Source of the DNA: Minisyncoccota bacterium
GTDB taxonomy: Bacteria > Patescibacteriota > Minisyncoccia > Phycocordibacterales > UBA9973
Assembly (NCBI GenBank): GCA_035299545.1
Contig: DATGWJ010000020.1
Coordinates: 1-57,714 of the forward strand
Direction of reading: 5' to 3'
DNA: 57,714 nt
The notes beneath the pieces were generated by a model. It had not been told where the DNA came from, did no database searches, and was given only the letters and a program-made list of their open reading frames with translations. Positions 2,719 through 52,020 of this stretch are shown in pieces. Each line of letters starts with the position of its first letter. Position 1 is the first letter of the stretch. The position numbers were made by a program, and so were the translations under genes.

Positions 2719-2827
2719 TAATGGGCTCATATATTGAAATTTTACGAGTAGGCGTGGGTGCGCCGGAGCAAGCGGTGGCTTGCGGAGAGGGATAAGCGAG
2801 TAAAATTTTAATATATGAGCCCATTAC
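2719..2827 (+). repeat. Dispersed hairpin element, copy 1
   Basis: 27-bp outer stem around core GAGTAGGCGTGGGTGCGCCGGAGCAAGCGGTGGCTTGCGGAGAGGGATAAGCGAG. Confidence 0.9.
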
Positions 2828-4083: not shown

Positions 4084-5220
4084 ATGCAAGATAGAACCCC
4101 GCTTTCATATATACAGATTTCAAAAGAAAACTTGATACATAATATTAAGCAGTTTCGTGATTTACTGAAGGGGCAAACGAAAATTGTTGCTGTTATAAAG
4201 GCGAATGCTTACGGACATGGAGATATAGTTATTGCCCAAATTGCTAGTCCGTTTGTGGATTATTTCCAAGTGGATGATATTGAAGAATATGAAAGAATCA
4301 AAAGTGCCACCAAGAAACCAGTTCTTATCTTGGGGTATTTAAATGAAGAAGGAATAAAAAAAGCGATAAAAACAAAGGCAATAATTTCAGCTTTTGACCT
4401 AGTGCATCTTTTAAAAATAAATCATATTGCTTTATCTTTAAAAACAAAAGCGAAAGTTCACTTGGCTATCGATTCTTATCTAGGAAGAGAAGGAGTAATG
4501 CCATCACAAGTGGAAAATATTATTAAGGAAATTAAAAATTTAAAAAATATTGAACTTGATGGAGTATATTCACATTTTGCAAATATTGAGGACACAATGA
4601 ATTCTACTCATGCGAACAGACAGATAGATACATATCATAAATGTGTGGAAATTTTTAAGAAAAATGGTTTCCCAAAAATTAATACTCACATTTCTGCTAC
4701 ATCAGGAATACTTGTTTATGAGAAGGGGAATAATTTGCACAATTTAGCACGATTGGGAATTGGCCTCTATGGTATGTGGCCAAGTGAACACTTGGGATAT
4801 TTAAATAAAAAGAAAACAAACTTAAAGCCAGTATTAAAATGGATTACGCATGTAGCTCAGGTGAAAGTTCTACCAGCAAATCATCCTGTCGGTTATGGTC
4901 TTACTTATATTACAAAAAAAGCTACAAAAATAGCTGTCATTCCACAAGGTTACTCGGACGGAGTCCCTAGATCTTTATCAAATAATGGTGAAGTGTTAAT
5001 AAAAGGTAAGAGAGCCAAAATTATAGGAAGAGTCGCAATGAATATGATTGTAGTAGATGTCTCAAATATAAAAGATGTAGTGCCAGAAGATGAAGTTGTG
5101 ATATTGGGAAAACAGGGGAAGAATGAGATTACAGCAGAGCAGATTGCAAAAGAATCAGGCACTATAAATTACGAAGCAACGACACGCATAAATGCGTTAT
5201 TACCAAGAATCGTAATGTAA
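4084..5220 (+). CDS. alr: Alanine racemase
   Basis: VIKANAYGHG PLP-lysine motif, GVYSHFA, VGYG, GRVAMN. Confidence 0.96.
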   Translation: MQDRTPLSYIQISKENLIHNIKQFRDLLKGQTKIVAVIKANAYGHGDIVIAQIASPFVDYFQVDDIEEYERIKSATKKPVLILGYLNEEGIKKAIKTKAIISAFDLVHLLKINHIALSLKTKAKVHLAIDSYLGREGVMPSQVENIIKEIKNLKNIELDGVYSHFANIEDTMNSTHANRQIDTYHKCVEIFKKNGFPKINTHISATSGILVYEKGNNLHNLARLGIGLYGMWPSEHLGYLNKKKTNLKPVLKWITHVAQVKVLPANHPVGYGLTYITKKATKIAVIPQGYSDGVPRSLSNNGEVLIKGKRAKIIGRVAMNMIVVDVSNIKDVVPEDEVVILGKQGKNEITAEQIAKESGTINYEATTRINALLPRIVM

Positions 5221-5223
5221 AAC

Positions 5224-5332
5224 AAAAAGAATGGATATATTATTTTATTCCTCCTTAACCCCATTCCTCGCGATTACGCTCGGAACGGCACGCCCCCGCC
5301 CGTCGTCATAAAACAACATATCCATTCTTTTT
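5224..5332 (-). repeat. Divergent member of the dispersed hairpin element (copy 5)
   Basis: 25-bp outer stem (G.U-compatible on minus strand); core GACGACGGGCGGGGGCGTGCCG-hairpin-TGGGGTTAAGGAGG; 109 bp. Confidence 0.7.
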
Positions 5333-5350: not shown

Positions 5351-5454
5351 AAAAGAACATAATATTGAAAATTTCTGAGTAGGTGTGGGCGCGCCGGAGC
5401 GAGCTTGCGAGCGGAGAGGGATAAGCGAGGAAATTTTTAATACTATGTTCTTTT
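5351..5454 (+). repeat. Dispersed hairpin element, copy 2
   Basis: 26-bp outer stem; core GAGTAGGTGTGGGCGCGCCGGAGCGAGCTTGCGAGCGGAGAGGGATAAGCGAGG. Confidence 0.9.
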
Positions 5455-5502: not shown

Positions 5503-5661
5503 ATGTCACAAGATAGACTTTTCAAATTAGCCTGTACGAAATGCAAGCGCATTAACTATTGGTCAAGCAAGAACAAAAAGCTCGTTACTAGAAAAATTGA
5601 GCTTAATAAGTATTGCAAATGGTGCAAAATTAATACTAAACACAAAGAAGCCAAAAAATAA
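5503..5661 (+). CDS. rpmG: 50S ribosomal protein L33 (Zn-binding CxxC/CxxC form); not in the ORF track
   Basis: MSQDRLFKLACTKCKRINYWSSKNKKLVTRKIELNKYCKWCKINTKHKEAKK. Confidence 0.95.
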   Translation: MSQDRLFKLACTKCKRINYWSSKNKKLVTRKIELNKYCKWCKINTKHKEAKK

Positions 5662-19069: not shown

Positions 19070-19177
19070 AAAACAGGGGGTATTCATAAAAATTTCTTCG
19101 CTTATCCCTACCGAATCCTGCCGGATTCGGCGCGCGCCCACACCTACTCAGAAATTTTCATGAATACCTCCTGTTTT
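19070..19177 (-). repeat. Dispersed hairpin element, copy 3 (inverted)
   Basis: 28-bp outer stem; minus-strand core GAGTAGGTGTGGGCGCGCG-CCGAATCC-GGCA-GGATTCGG-TAGGGATAAGCGAAG. Confidence 0.9.
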
Positions 19178-43823: not shown

Positions 43824-45203
43824 ATGCAGAATTATAAACAACAATTTAAGGGCAAGCGTATTACAATAATGGGGTTAGGGCTACTTGGACGTGGTCTTGG
43901 ATATACTAAATTCTTGGCAGAATGTGGGGCTGATTTAGTAGTGACGGATTTAAAAACAGAAGAACAACTTACAACCTCAGTGAAAGCACTAAACAAGTTT
44001 AAGAATATTAAATTTGTTTTAGGAGAACATCGGTTAGAAGATTTTAAAAACAAAGATATGATAGTGAAATCCGCCGGAGTTCCTCTTGATTCCATTTATA
44101 TAAATGAAGCAAGGAAGAATAATATTCCAATTGAAATGGATGTATCCTTATTTGCCAAATGTGCACCTCTAGTTATGATTATCGGAGTTACAGGTACAAG
44201 AGGGAAGTCAATGACTACAGCTTTATCTTACGAAATTTTAAAAGCTAACGAAAAGTTACTAAAAAGGAAAGTTTATATTGGTGGAAATGTGCGAGGTGTA
44301 GCTACTCTTCCTCTTCTTAAAAAAGTGAAGAAAGGGGACATTCTTGTCTGCGAACTTGATTCTTGGCAGTTGCAAGGATTTGGTGAAGCAAACCTGCCTG
44401 ACCGGCAGGCAGGAATTTCTCCACATATTTCAGTATTCACAACCTTCATGCCAGACCATATGAATTACTACAAAAATAGTATGGAAAGATATTTTGAAGA
44501 CAAGGCAAATATTTTTAAATACCAAAATAAAGATGATGTGTTAATTATTCTTCCTGAAATGAAGAAATTAATCAAGAAAGAGGAAGTGAAAGGTAAATTA
44601 GTAATTGCTGATGGGAAAAATGTCAGTGATTGGAAATTCAATGTAAAGGGAGATCACCATAGGAACAATATGGCTTGTGCTGTAGAAGTGGCGAAAGTGC
44701 TCGGTATCCCAGAATCAAAGATAAAGAAAGTAATTTCTAAATTCAAAGACCTAGAGGGACGCCTTCAATATTTAAAGACATACAAAGGTATTAAAATCTA
44801 TAATGATAATAATGCCACAACCCCCGAGGCCACAATCGCCGGTCTTGAAGCATTATCTAAAGATTTCGCAAGGACAGTCCTTGCGAAAAATAAGGTTATT
44901 TTGATTTGTGGAGGGGCGGATAAGGGGCTACCTTTGGATAACTTTGTTAAAATGGTAAATACACACTGTAAAGCTGTGATAATGATTCCAGGAACAGGTA
45001 CAGAGAGATTATTGAAGAGTTATGAACTCAAAGTTAAGAATGAGGTGGGGAAAGAATTAAATGATATAGTGAAGCGAGCAGTAAAAGAATCAAAAAAAGG
45101 GGATACTATTCTCTTTTCTCCAGCTTTCGCATCTTTTGGAATGTTTAATAATGAATACGAAAGAAATGATTTATTTATTAAGATAATTAAAAAGTTGAAA
45201 TAA
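43824..45203 (+). CDS. murD: UDP-MurNAc-Ala:D-Glu ligase
   Basis: GLGLLGRG, GVTGTRGKS, ELDSWQL, PDHMNYY, YNDNNAT, ICGGADK, SPAFASF. Confidence 0.95.
   Translation: MQNYKQQFKGKRITIMGLGLLGRGLGYTKFLAECGADLVVTDLKTEEQLTTSVKALNKFKNIKFVLGEHRLEDFKNKDMIVKSAGVPLDSIYINEARKNNIPIEMDVSLFAKCAPLVMIIGVTGTRGKSMTTALSYEILKANEKLLKRKVYIGGNVRGVATLPLLKKVKKGDILVCELDSWQLQGFGEANLPDRQAGISPHISVFTTFMPDHMNYYKNSMERYFEDKANIFKYQNKDDVLIILPEMKKLIKKEEVKGKLVIADGKNVSDWKFNVKGDHHRNNMACAVEVAKVLGIPESKIKKVISKFKDLEGRLQYLKTYKGIKIYNDNNATTPEATIAGLEALSKDFARTVLAKNKVILICGGADKGLPLDNFVKMVNTHCKAVIMIPGTGTERLLKSYELKVKNEVGKELNDIVKRAVKESKKGDTILFSPAFASFGMFNNEYERNDLFIKIIKKLK
44393..44413. repeat. 21-nt palindrome in-frame in murD (LPDRQAG)
   Basis: CCTGCCTG-ACCGG-CAGGCAGG; precise removal leaves GEA-K-ISPH. 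Confidence 0.8.
44864..44888. repeat. 25-nt palindrome in murD (FARTVLAK)
   Basis: TTTCGCAAGGAC-A-GTCCTTGCGAAA, identical to intergenic 49648-49672. Confidence 0.9.
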
Positions 45204-49647: not shown

Positions 49648-49672
49648 TTTCGCAAGGACAGTCCTTGCGAAA
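49648..49672. repeat. Intergenic copy of the 25-nt palindrome
   Basis: TTTCGCAAGGACAGTCCTTGCGAAA, 3 nt after the mrdA stop. Confidence 0.9.
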
Positions 49673-50230: not shown

Positions 50231-51688
50231 ATGGCCTCAATCGAAGAACTACGCGACGCGCGAATTAAAAAGTTAGAAATATTAAAAGAACAAGGGCAAG
50301 ATCCGTACACTGCTCAGTCTTTTCGTACTCATACGATAAAAGAAGTTATAGATGGTTTCGAAATTCTTTCTAAGGATAATAAAGAAGTTACTATAGCTGG
50401 AAGAGTAATGTCTCTTCGAGGTCAAGGGGCGCTTATATTTTTCAATATTACAGATGGTAGTGACTCATTCCAAGGATTAATTAAGAAAGGAGAAATAGAA
50501 GATAATCTCTTTAAGCTTTTTGTTGATGCTATAGATATCGCTGACTTTATAGAAGTTACAGGTACTTTATTTAAAACTAAAACCGAACAACAAACGGTTC
50601 TTGTGAAGAGTTGGAGAATACTTACAAAAGCATTACAACCGCTTCCAGAGAAATGGCACGGTCTCCAAGATATAGAAGAAAAGTTTCGTAAAAGATATCT
50701 TGATATTCTCACTACCGATGAACTTAGAGAGCTTTTTGAAAAGAAAGCAAAATTCTGGGAAGTCACAAGAACGTTTATGAAAGAGCACGGCTTCCTTGAA
50801 GTAGAAACTCCAACTCTTGAAATTACAACAGGAGGAGCAGAAGCAAATCCATTCAAGACGCACCATAAAGATTTTGATGTTGATGTTTATCTTCGTATTT
50901 CAGTCGGAGAGCTTTGGCAGAAGCGCTTGATGTCGGCTGGTTTTCCTAAAACATTTGAAATCGGTAGAGTTTACAGGAATGAAGGAAGTAGTGCAGACCA
51001 TCTTCAAGAATTTACAAACATGGAATTCTACTGGGCTTATGCAAATTATAAAGATGGAATGAAACTCGCAGAAGAACTTTATCAAAAGATTGCGATGGAT
51101 GTCTTTGGGACAACTGTATTTGAGACAAGGGGACACAAGTTCGACCTTGCTGGTTCATGGCCTGTCATAGAATATCGCGAAGAAGTTTTGAAGCAGACTG
51201 GGATAGATGTATTAAAAGCAACAGAGAAAGAAATGAGTGATAAGCTCGATGAAATTCATATTAAATACGAAGGAAACAATCGTGAAAGATTAATGGATAC
51301 ACTTTGGAAATATTGCCGAAAGAATATTGCGGGTCCAGCATTTTTGATACATCATCCTAAATTAGTTTCTCCATTATCAAAAGCATGCGCTGATAATCCT
51401 GAATTGACAGAACGATTCCAAATTATTATCGCCGGAAGTGAAGTAGGGAATGGATTCTCTGAATTGAACGACCCTATTGACCAGCGAGCTCGATTTGAAA
51501 CACAACAGAAATTAATAGAAAAAGGGGACGAAGAAGCAATGATGCCAGAATGGGATTTCGTAGAAATGCTAGAACACGGTATGCCTCCAACTTGTGGTTT
51601 TGGATTCGGTGAGAGATTGTTCTCTTTTATGGTAGATAAACCAGTTCGTGAGACACAACTATTTCCACTAATGAAGCCAAAAGAGTAA
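50231..51688 (+). CDS. lysS: Lysyl-tRNA synthetase, class II
   Basis: FLEVETP, GGAEANPF, YRNEG...HLQEFT, TERFQ, NGFSELNDP, GMPPTCGFGFG. Confidence 0.97.
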   Translation: MASIEELRDARIKKLEILKEQGQDPYTAQSFRTHTIKEVIDGFEILSKDNKEVTIAGRVMSLRGQGALIFFNITDGSDSFQGLIKKGEIEDNLFKLFVDAIDIADFIEVTGTLFKTKTEQQTVLVKSWRILTKALQPLPEKWHGLQDIEEKFRKRYLDILTTDELRELFEKKAKFWEVTRTFMKEHGFLEVETPTLEITTGGAEANPFKTHHKDFDVDVYLRISVGELWQKRLMSAGFPKTFEIGRVYRNEGSSADHLQEFTNMEFYWAYANYKDGMKLAEELYQKIAMDVFGTTVFETRGHKFDLAGSWPVIEYREEVLKQTGIDVLKATEKEMSDKLDEIHIKYEGNNRERLMDTLWKYCRKNIAGPAFLIHHPKLVSPLSKACADNPELTERFQIIIAGSEVGNGFSELNDPIDQRARFETQQKLIEKGDEEAMMPEWDFVEMLEHGMPPTCGFGFGERLFSFMVDKPVRETQLFPLMKPKE

Positions 51689-51797
51689 GACTTAAAAATA
51701 TGTTTGAAATTTCTGAGTAGGTGTGGGCTCGCCGGAGCAAGCGGTGGCTTGCGGAGAGGGATAAGCGAAGAAATTTTAAATATATTTTGAAGTTTTA
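51686..51797 (+). repeat. Dispersed hairpin element, copy 4
   Basis: 29-bp outer stem beginning at the lysS stop codon; core nearly identical to copy 1. Confidence 0.9.
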
Positions 51798-51809: not shown

Positions 51810-52020
51810 AAATAAAAAAGCCGTCTTTCCATGAAAGACGGCTTTTGGGTTCTTTAATATCTAAGAATGGTTCCATTTTCACTGCACTTTCGTATGGAAA
51901 ACAATGCTGGTTTCTGCTGAGGCTTTAGGCGCTCAACCTGTCATTGTCTTATTCTTAGACGGATTCGGCTACTTTTTCAATATTAGCCGGTAAATTAAAG
52001 AACTATATGTGGGAGATTTC
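51810..52020 (-). ncRNA. Candidate orphan structured non-coding RNA (~210 nt)
   Basis: Own promoter and terminator, no credible ORF, five nested stems. Confidence 0.6.
51816..51846 (-). terminator. Intrinsic terminator (probably bidirectional; stronger U-tract on minus strand)
   Basis: AAAAGCCGTCTTTC-CAT-GAAAGACGGCTTTT. Confidence 0.85.

Follow-up and report, generated by a model that had tools for sequence, protein, structure and literature searches.

The four stretches flagged in the window (the whole 57,714-nt stretch of DNA under analysis) are copies of an apparently undescribed family of palindromic hairpin repeats of ~105-112 nt from one genus of ultra-small CPR bacteria, here termed family 1. 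On balance, we favour the view that family 1 represents genus-restricted palindromic repeats that most resemble the selfish Rickettsia palindromic elements (RPE) and the REP sequences, in which the tip of the hairpin would be recopied, one strand would be the folded one, and use as a terminator would be frequent. The whole hairpin is gained and lost as a unit, it is inherited vertically over long periods while its arms drift by compensated changes, and it has flipped, either as a whole unit or in its tip.

Copies in the window and architecture of the hairpin

The copies, one diverged relative and one neighbouring terminator are located as follows:

2719..2826, plus strand: copy c1, with 5' arm 2719-2748, core 2749-2796 and 3' arm 2797-2826
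5224..5332, minus strand: diverged sister-family hairpin of the same architecture, with the minus-strand core GACGACGGGCGGGGGCGTGCC...GGGGTTAAGGAGGA
5351..5454, plus strand: copy c2, with 5' arm 5351-5379, core 5380-5425 and 3' arm 5426-5454
19070..19177, minus strand: copy c3, with minus-strand 5' arm 19177-19147, core 19146-19101 and 3' arm 19100-19070
51686..51797, plus strand: copy c4, with core 51718-51765 and arms beginning at the lysS stop codon (51686-51688)
51817..51846, plus strand: intrinsic terminator of lysS, not part of the element, GCCGTCTTTC-CAT-GAAAGACGGC and then TTTT

The two halves of the core, GAGTAGGYGTGGG and AGGGATAAGCGA, occur exactly four times each in the window, at these positions and on these strands, and 0.6 matches to GAGTAGGYGTGGG are expected there by chance; the four copies with a shared core reported in the preliminary description of this DNA are thus borne out. 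Each copy folds as one long hairpin (-35 to -55 kcal/mol, z = -4.9 to -10.7 against shuffles), and in all four the core-sense strand is 8-18 kcal/mol more stable than its complement.

The unit consists of a 30-bp stem and an apical core of roughly 46 nt. Stem statistics were collected for 64 copies from 13 genomes, with positions counted outward from the core. Pairing between the two arms of a copy is at least 95% up to position 22 and 77-89% up to position 29, and it is at background (about 0.45) at position 31; because of this collapse, the stem can be regarded as constant at 29-30 bp, in agreement with the constant stem length proposed earlier, since pairing ends at 30-31 bp. The division of the stem into a shared inner and a locus-specific outer part also stands, but not the lengths given for these parts, which are ~19 and ~10 bp instead of ~10 and ~17 bp. 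Similarly, the outer arms do differ by locus, but they are not completely unrelated, as orthologues and a few paralogues share them. In the 64 copies, the 5' arm is conserved at positions 4-19 (consensus ATATATTGAAAATTTCT) and locus-specific at positions 20-30, where it becomes A-rich at the end.

Among 28 distinct copies, the inner stem is 99.4% paired and 8 of its 12 pairs have changed on both sides; none of 500 shuffles matches the observed pairing and covariation, and slid controls pair at 31-51%. Mismatches at stem positions 4-19 of the 64 copies are strongly skewed (38 G.T vs 3 A.C, at no fewer than 7 positions and on both arms), whereas those of the distal stem are unbiased (G.T to A.C, 19:19). 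The skew in the inner stem implies that the core-sense strand folds alone and is the strand whose fold matters, which supports the strand-specific folding postulated at the outset; the G.U-type wobble described as conserved is likewise seen, as a G.T within TTGAAA/TTTTAA, in all four window copies.

The junction of stem and core is formed by a G-C pair plus tandem G.A/A.G, in place of which sub-family 1b has plain Watson-Crick pairs (ATCC/GGAT, ATCG/CGAT). A subset of copies possesses a symmetric GAA/GAA purine loop at stem positions ~23-26, followed by an outer helix of 3-6 bp. At the apex lies an asymmetric, purine-rich loop (5' UAGGYGUGGGCGCG, 3' (AG/U)AGGGAUAAG) that is nearly invariant across species and is topped by a variable hairpin, P2. 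The P2 stem changes by compensated substitutions (GCAAGC/GCUUGC, CCGAAUCC/GGAUUCGG, GCCC/GGGC, CUCCGAC/GUCGGAG). Tandem G.A is frequent in P2, and the hairpin is capped by a GAA, CUUG or GNNN loop. The core of c1 reads TAGGCGTGGGTGCGCC-GGA-[GCAAGC GGTG GCTTGC]-GGAGAGGGATAAG, the P2 of c2 is the commonest variant of the genome (GC-GA-G[CUUG]C-GA-GC), and the P2 of c3 is CCGAATCC-GGCA-GGATTCGG.

Two other interpretations of the arms were rejected. Apparent direct repeats (GAAG, AGCGAAGCA), considered as a target-site duplication, are the two sides of the symmetric GAA/GAA loop closed by G-C, and no target-site duplication was recognised. A leader peptide spanning the 5' arm (ATG/TTG AAA ATT TCT GAG TAG) was ruled out, c4 being off frame by one base, and reading of the arms revealed no evident internal promoter.

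The gene context of the copies, for which gene names are Pfam assignments, is diverse. Copy c1 is flanked by two divergently transcribed genes, an HTH-fused murA that starts at 2704 on the minus strand and murB, which starts at 2881 on the plus strand. Since the palindromic operator/promoter tatctcatatatgatataattgcaa shared by murA-murB falls between c1 and murB, c1 lies by its position inside the 5' leader of murA, in antisense orientation, and no T-run follows the hairpin. At the site of c1, metagenome orthologues have only 11 nt; the murA leader of one metagenome orthologue contains a family-1 copy that is flipped relative to c1 and has other distal arms, and that of another contains a hairpin of a different family. 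The arrangement of murA, carrying an N-terminal HTH domain, divergent from murB and with the highly conserved tatctcatatatgatataattgcaa operator between them (2828-2880; metagenome loci L121-L137), suggests that the pair is autoregulated by the fused HTH domain of murA.

Copy c2 follows alr, which ends at 5220, and precedes rpmG, which starts at 5503; it is in sense orientation to both genes. The sister-family hairpin lies 18 nt from it in the opposite orientation, with a second copy of this sister family at 18136-18248 of contig C22. Copy c3 occupies the spacer of ychF-yrdC(sua5) in antisense orientation; in most relatives that keep this adjacency, the two genes overlap or are 0-32 nt apart, with no palindrome between them. 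Copy c4 is sense to lysS and upstream of its intact intrinsic terminator, and relatives with the same lysS type have a plain terminator only, directly after the lysS stop. As the terminator is retained downstream of c4, its loop was not the insertion site of c4. The reported split into two sense and two antisense copies is therefore accurate, with c2 and c4 in the first group and c1 and c3 in the second. The lysS gene itself (50231-51688) is of two types in the genus: eight genomes including the host share at least 80% identity over the C-terminal 114 residues, and the remaining lysS genes have only 38-49% identity over the same residues, which suggests that some members of the genus have acquired a foreign lysS in place of their own.

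Across 52 copies, the hairpins between co-directional genes are antisense in 20 cases and sense in 8, and a further 11 and 9 are found between convergent and divergent genes, respectively. A replication-strand bias is absent, with 9 copies concordant and 11 discordant with the GC skew. Family-1 sites are found after stop codons, within operons, in 5' leaders and in frame within genes. Two genes, trxB and an ORF with only a sub-threshold HTH_DeoR match, have a copy on each side, and neither encodes a mobility enzyme.

A run of at least four T residues after the hairpin is present in 34 of the 53 directions that receive gene transcription, as compared with 27 of the 61 others (p = 0.04), and in other species the ftsZ-trxB and nusG-rplK spacers have plain terminators or other hairpin families at the same spot. 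Judging from these positions and T-runs, many copies probably act as, or replace, intrinsic terminators. Termination is not the defining role of the family, because c1 is in a 5' leader without a T-run and c4 stands ahead of a separate terminator.

Distribution, insertion and inheritance

Searches of the host genome (746 kb, 33 contigs, 34% G+C) with a regular expression and with nhmmer --max identified exactly 20 intact copies; nhmmer --max returned only 20 full-length matches, with no decayed family-1 relics in the host genome. The earlier proposal of a dispersed REP-like element is supported. A first pattern scan of 36 other genomes of the genus found family 1 in 12 of them, with 1-15 copies each, and a later sample added two genomes. 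Roughly one in three species of the genus are carriers, and further copies are present on metagenome contigs of relatives. A covariance-model scan of relatives, suggested in the preliminary description, was combined with a pattern scan, and each was run over 401 genomes from 223 genera of the order. In these scans, family 1 is confined to one genus, except for a single copy in one genome of another family of the order. Mapped onto a trxB tree, the carriers are scattered and require 8 changes, a fit not superior to that of shuffled labels; of two sister species, one may have family 1 and the other lack it. The sole copy outside the genus (locus L239, G428:C1:425284-425348) has arms (CAGAACCTTCCTGAAAAAAATC) similar to those of the in-frame uvrB copies described below, and it could represent either an ancient shared insertion or a horizontal transfer.

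Scanning of the whole window against Rfam at gathering thresholds gave five tRNAs only and no match for the element, and a permissive scan of c1 gave only chance matches with E above 2; the earlier conclusion that the element is not a riboswitch is supported by this lack of a matching Rfam family. In the literature, we found no account of these elements in Patescibacteria. Exact-protein look-up provided no closer strains of the host, and the best match in the metagenome scan had 71% identity.

Copies inserted in frame within genes mostly belong to sub-family 1b, are found in both orientations and keep the reading frames open. They are distributed among genes and genomes as follows:

uvrA: the host genome, with orthologous copies in G008 and G020
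uvrB: G008, G004 and G031
murB: G008, G004 and G020
tgt: G020
putative mnmA: G036
one further gene: G033

Empty and filled alleles were aligned codon by codon inside these coding genes. For uvrB and murB, the host alleles are empty and the filled alleles of relatives are longer by 99-114 nt, corresponding to both arms plus the core; uvrA is filled in the host and empty in G026 and G016 (..NVFLGQTKTRLNIVDL..). The empty alleles of all three genes contain neither arm, and at most 2-3 nt of the conserved codons join the outermost helix of the filled ones. The comparison of orthologous empty sites, also suggested earlier, thus identifies the whole hairpin as the insertion at uvrB, murB and uvrA. 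At the same position of uvrA, G004 has a family-2-like core.

The core sense strand is open in one frame only, with TAG and TAA in the other two, and the pyrimidine-rich antisense strand is without stops, which fits the excess of antisense copies among the in-frame ones. The peptides recurring within genes are NRRRGRA..GISDF (sense) and KNRLSLPRP..ARAHTYDF (antisense). Three host genes, tgt (C22 7961-9256), putative mnmA (C21 10891-12087) and the gene at C30 5237-5893, contain other palindromic inserts, exemplified by a doublet of AAGGACNGTCCTT in tgt, at codon positions where relatives hold family 1. These sites are hot spots for mutual replacement of hairpin elements inside proteins.

Once established, copies are inherited. 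The arms of the orthologous murB copies in three species (ACCCGC/GCGGGT, GCCCGC/GCGGGC and ACCAGC/GCTGGT) are related by compensated double substitutions, and homologous arms with compensated changes at orthologous sites mean that the arms were inherited and not made anew. Family 1 is likewise present between ftsZ and trxB in G000 (flipped), G004 and G020, with the related distal arms AAACACGGC, AAAGCAGGC and AAGACAAGC; flips at orthologous sites are thus seen both here and in the murA leader. A different kind of relatedness is observed for three paralogues, on the 3' side of an unknown ORF on contig C2, in nusG-rplK and in rpmE-prfA, which share full arms, a GAA/GRA loop and the outer helix. 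Full arms common to three unrelated loci imply that whole hairpins can duplicate to new sites; no empty version of the palindrome of this trio was found in the host genome. TA flanks are present at two of the three recent copies.

The tips follow another pattern. Nine copies in the host genome carry an identical P2 on unrelated arms, and 43 of 66 copies have their nearest P2 match in another copy of the same genome. Distal arms are equally similar within genomes and between them, at the background value of 0.43. The orthologous copies in uvrA, murB and ftsZ-trxB bear the P2 or core type of their own genome. This match of tips to same-genome paralogues instead of the orthologues of sister genomes indicates that the tip evolves in concert within a genome.

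Mechanism and competing explanations

In the reading that we favour, the tip would be recopied repeatedly from one copy to another, through gene conversion of short tracts or through template switching, for which the 19-bp inner stems and the invariant loop could serve as homology. Together with selection on the fold, such recopying would produce a near-invariant core on locus-specific-looking arms and leave no decayed copies. The element would act as a folded core-sense single strand, either as ssDNA in mobilisation or repair or as RNA when transcribed, and the T-runs ending about two thirds of the copies that receive transcription would make these copies probable terminators. The copying enzyme may be a RAYT-like HUH transposase of the genus acting in trans, or else an unrecognised protein.

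Several observations are difficult to reconcile with this scheme. No transposase is tied to family 1. Except for one trio, paralogues have no distal arms in common, so that either recent transposition of the whole unit is rare or the arms arise otherwise. The sharp 30-bp limit of the stem is not accounted for by simple drift, and an AT-rich homology of ~19 bp would be a short substrate for recombination of the RecA type. A host function could instead be the reason why the internal loop does not vary across species.

The search for a mobilising enzyme covered proteins with the Y1_Tnp domain (PF01797), which are 215-260 aa long and present in 36 of 41 genomes of the genus, at 1-5 per genome. The only Y1_Tnp/RAYT-like gene of the host (contig C2, 25799-26470, Pfam E = 1.3e-8) is 20 kb away from the nearest family-1 copy and is flanked by a simple 23-nt palindrome, TTTCGCAAGGACWGTCCTTGCGAAA, which is found at ~11 loci in the genome. 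This palindrome and the Y1_Tnp gene form a classical REP-RAYT arrangement in a CPR genome; two copies of TTTCGCAAGGACWGTCCTTGCGAAA are inside the window, at 44865-44887 and 49649-49671. Each RAYT-like gene examined in the other genomes of the genus is also flanked by its own palindrome and not by family 1, the carrier genome G036 has no Y1 match, and the numbers of Y1 genes do not track family 1. A co-occurring HUH/RAYT transposase, which it had been suggested to look for, is thus without a link to the family, as the widespread Y1 genes flank other palindromes and their counts are untied to it. The statement that the window contains no mobilising enzyme is correct, and no parent IS for family 1 was found. 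The GTAG of the core (in GAGTAGG), the REP head motif, is no more than a lead.

A first alternative, improbable in our judgement, is that the mobile unit comprises the core and ~19 bp of the inner stem only and is copied into the dyad of pre-existing hairpins, for example bidirectional terminators or other palindromic repeats, so that the distal arms belong to the locus and one family can take the place of another on the same scaffold. The concerted tips, with P2 and core types that are unlike those of orthologues and like those of paralogues, are expected under this explanation, as is the restriction of strand-biased mismatches (38:3, against 19:19 distally) to the inner 19 bp. The distal 10 bp of many copies resemble the stem of a bidirectional terminator (an A-run, 4-8 GC-rich bp and a T-run), and different core families occupy the same sites in different species, both in spacers (nusG-rplK, ftsZ-trxB, dnaK-dnaJ) and at codons of uvrA, tgt and putative mnmA. 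In particular, the family-2-like core in uvrA of G004 sits on arms like those of the family-1 copies of G000 and G008 (GRAGCAGGA...TCCTG). However, GRAGCAGGA arms recur at unrelated loci, so that shared arms need not mean a shared scaffold, and the sisters G020 (family 1) and G063 (family 3) have wholly different arms at one site, which means replacement of the whole hairpin. The empty alleles in coding genes are also without the distal arms, and c4 is beside the lysS terminator and not within it. Finally, plain hairpins of the host genome have stems of 19-33 bp, and filling them would give arms far in excess of the constant 30 bp.

This alternative can be extended to a more specific proposal, likewise doubtful, in which family 1 and its sister families are apical hairpin-tip cassettes, and a structure-specific enzyme would read the invariant purine-rich loop on one folded strand, transfer copies of the cassette between hairpins, home at a dyad and measure a stem of ~30 bp. 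If true, it would explain the interchangeable cores, the concerted tips and the absence of decayed copies, and would represent a new kind of mobile unit.

We consider it unlikely that family 1 is a host-selected structured RNA, in which the loop and the 30-bp helix would be bound or processed in transcripts (a dsRNA-binding protein and RNase III are examples), or would terminate transcripts or stabilise their 3' ends, and copies would be kept for the regulation of neighbouring genes. Such selection would be consistent with an internal loop that is invariant across species on a covarying P2 and stem, with two features typical of RNA, namely tandem sheared G.A pairs and a CUUG tetraloop that has a G-C closing pair, and with the tolerance of G.T wobbles on one strand only. 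The absence of decayed copies, the location of copies at terminator positions and the enrichment of T-runs toward incoming transcription point in the same direction. Nevertheless, the gene context is not fixed, the orientation is mixed and leans to antisense (20 vs 8 in co-directional pairs), orthologous copies are flipped, and in-frame copies exist in five housekeeping genes in both orientations. The presence or absence of the whole family also varies between sister species, and the C-G-closed GAA triloop (GCGAAGC) is characteristic of stable mini-hairpins of DNA, which counts against an RNA function.

The mechanism offered in the preliminary description, in which insertion of a small core is accompanied by copying of ~10-17 nt from one flank into the inverted arm, would suit the constant stem length with its sharp end at 30 bp, the different distal arms of paralogues and the start of the c4 5' arm at the lysS stop (where TAAGACTTAAAAA is weakly like the post-stop TAAGATACAAAAAA of a relative), but it is very improbable and already largely refuted, because the whole hairpin is the indel and neither arm pre-exists in the empty alleles of uvrB, murB and uvrA (with at most 2-3 nt of codons in the outermost helix), the murA-murB and ychF-yrdC sites of relatives are 0-30 nt long with no arm-like sequence, orthologous arms are inherited and changed by compensation, and complete arms are common to three paralogues.

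Relation to known repeats and other hairpin families

Among known repeats, family 1 is most suitably placed with the palindromic repeats of the RPE/REP kind, as a variant of these. RPE are palindromic repeats of ~100-150 bp in a small genome, they are also intergenic, and their copies are common to related species. To our knowledge, no transposase is known for them. RPE are found as in-frame insertions in unrelated housekeeping genes (PMC10969869). Family 1 is similarly of the ~100-150-bp class and located both in frame in conserved genes (inserts of 99-114 nt) and between genes. In contrast to RPE, whose copies are alike over the full length, family 1 is conserved in the tip and inner stem only, with an outer stem that varies by locus, and its tips evolve in concert within a genome; it is also found in CPR/Patescibacteria and is unrelated in sequence.

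REPs carry a conserved GTAG head. Family 1 has GTAG 5' of the conserved part (in GAGTAGG), and both are dispersed and strand-specific and fold as single strands; RAYT-like Y1 genes are common in the family-1 genus (36 of 41 genomes). However, REPs are extragenic sequences of 20-40 nt with a conserved stem, usually present in hundreds, whereas family 1 is ~108 nt long, has 20 copies per genome and is partly intragenic. Conservation in family 1 is found in the apical loop and inner stem, below which the outer stem is variable. A RAYT is flanked by its own REPs, whereas the RAYT-like gene here is flanked by TTTCGCAAGGACWGTCCTTGCGAAA and not by family 1.

Repeats of the Correia (CREE/NEMIS), ERIC and SPRITE type, which are MITEs, can be substrates of RNase III or RNase E or can be terminator-like (PMC10969869). 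They share with family 1 a length of ~100-150 nt, long inverted ends, co-transcription with neighbouring genes and folding into hairpins, but they have conserved terminal inverted repeats and, for Correia, TA duplications, whereas the termini of family 1 are its least conserved part and no duplication was recognised. With regard to MITE features, the inner 19 bp act like inverted repeats and the true termini are variable. For integron attC sites, the folded shape of one strand is likewise more decisive than the sequence, and the length is similar (57-141 nt). These recombination sites, however, have a variable tip and carry their conserved boxes at the stem base, the reverse of family 1, which is accompanied by neither an integrase nor a cassette array.

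The genomes of CPR/Patescibacteria are tiny and are thought to be poor in mobile DNA; the host carries several families of long hairpin repeats, which take terminator positions and even coding sequence of DNA-repair and cell-wall genes. Family 1 displays an unusual division of labour between a near-invariant, genome-homogenised tip and a stem that is fixed in length and free in sequence. It provides a tractable case for the spread and upkeep of palindromic repeats without a transposase, as in Rickettsia, and for the supply of terminators to streamlined genomes. For genome annotation, these elements yield spurious small ORFs and inflate conserved proteins by ~35 residues.

In total, 166 long inverted repeats were identified in the host genome. 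The genome has 63 plain hairpins with stems of at least 19 bp, mostly bidirectional terminators. In addition to family 1, at least four families combine a conserved core with long, AT-rich stems that vary, and one of these families has ~12 copies. Depending on the species, the nusG-rplK, ftsZ-trxB and dnaK-dnaJ spacers are either empty or occupied by a plain terminator or by family 1, 2 or 3, and sister species can differ in the occupant. The ~12-copy family has a core of ~60 nt (GGCGTGCGCAAGCC..GAGCAATGAGGAAATTTC..ATCCGGAC) on variable stems of 15-32 bp, with examples at C10:32828, C11:2640, C21:58748, C24:81597, C26:37599 and C29:19702, and in other species it is found in the ftsZ-trxB, nusG-rplK and dnaK-dnaJ spacers used by family 1.
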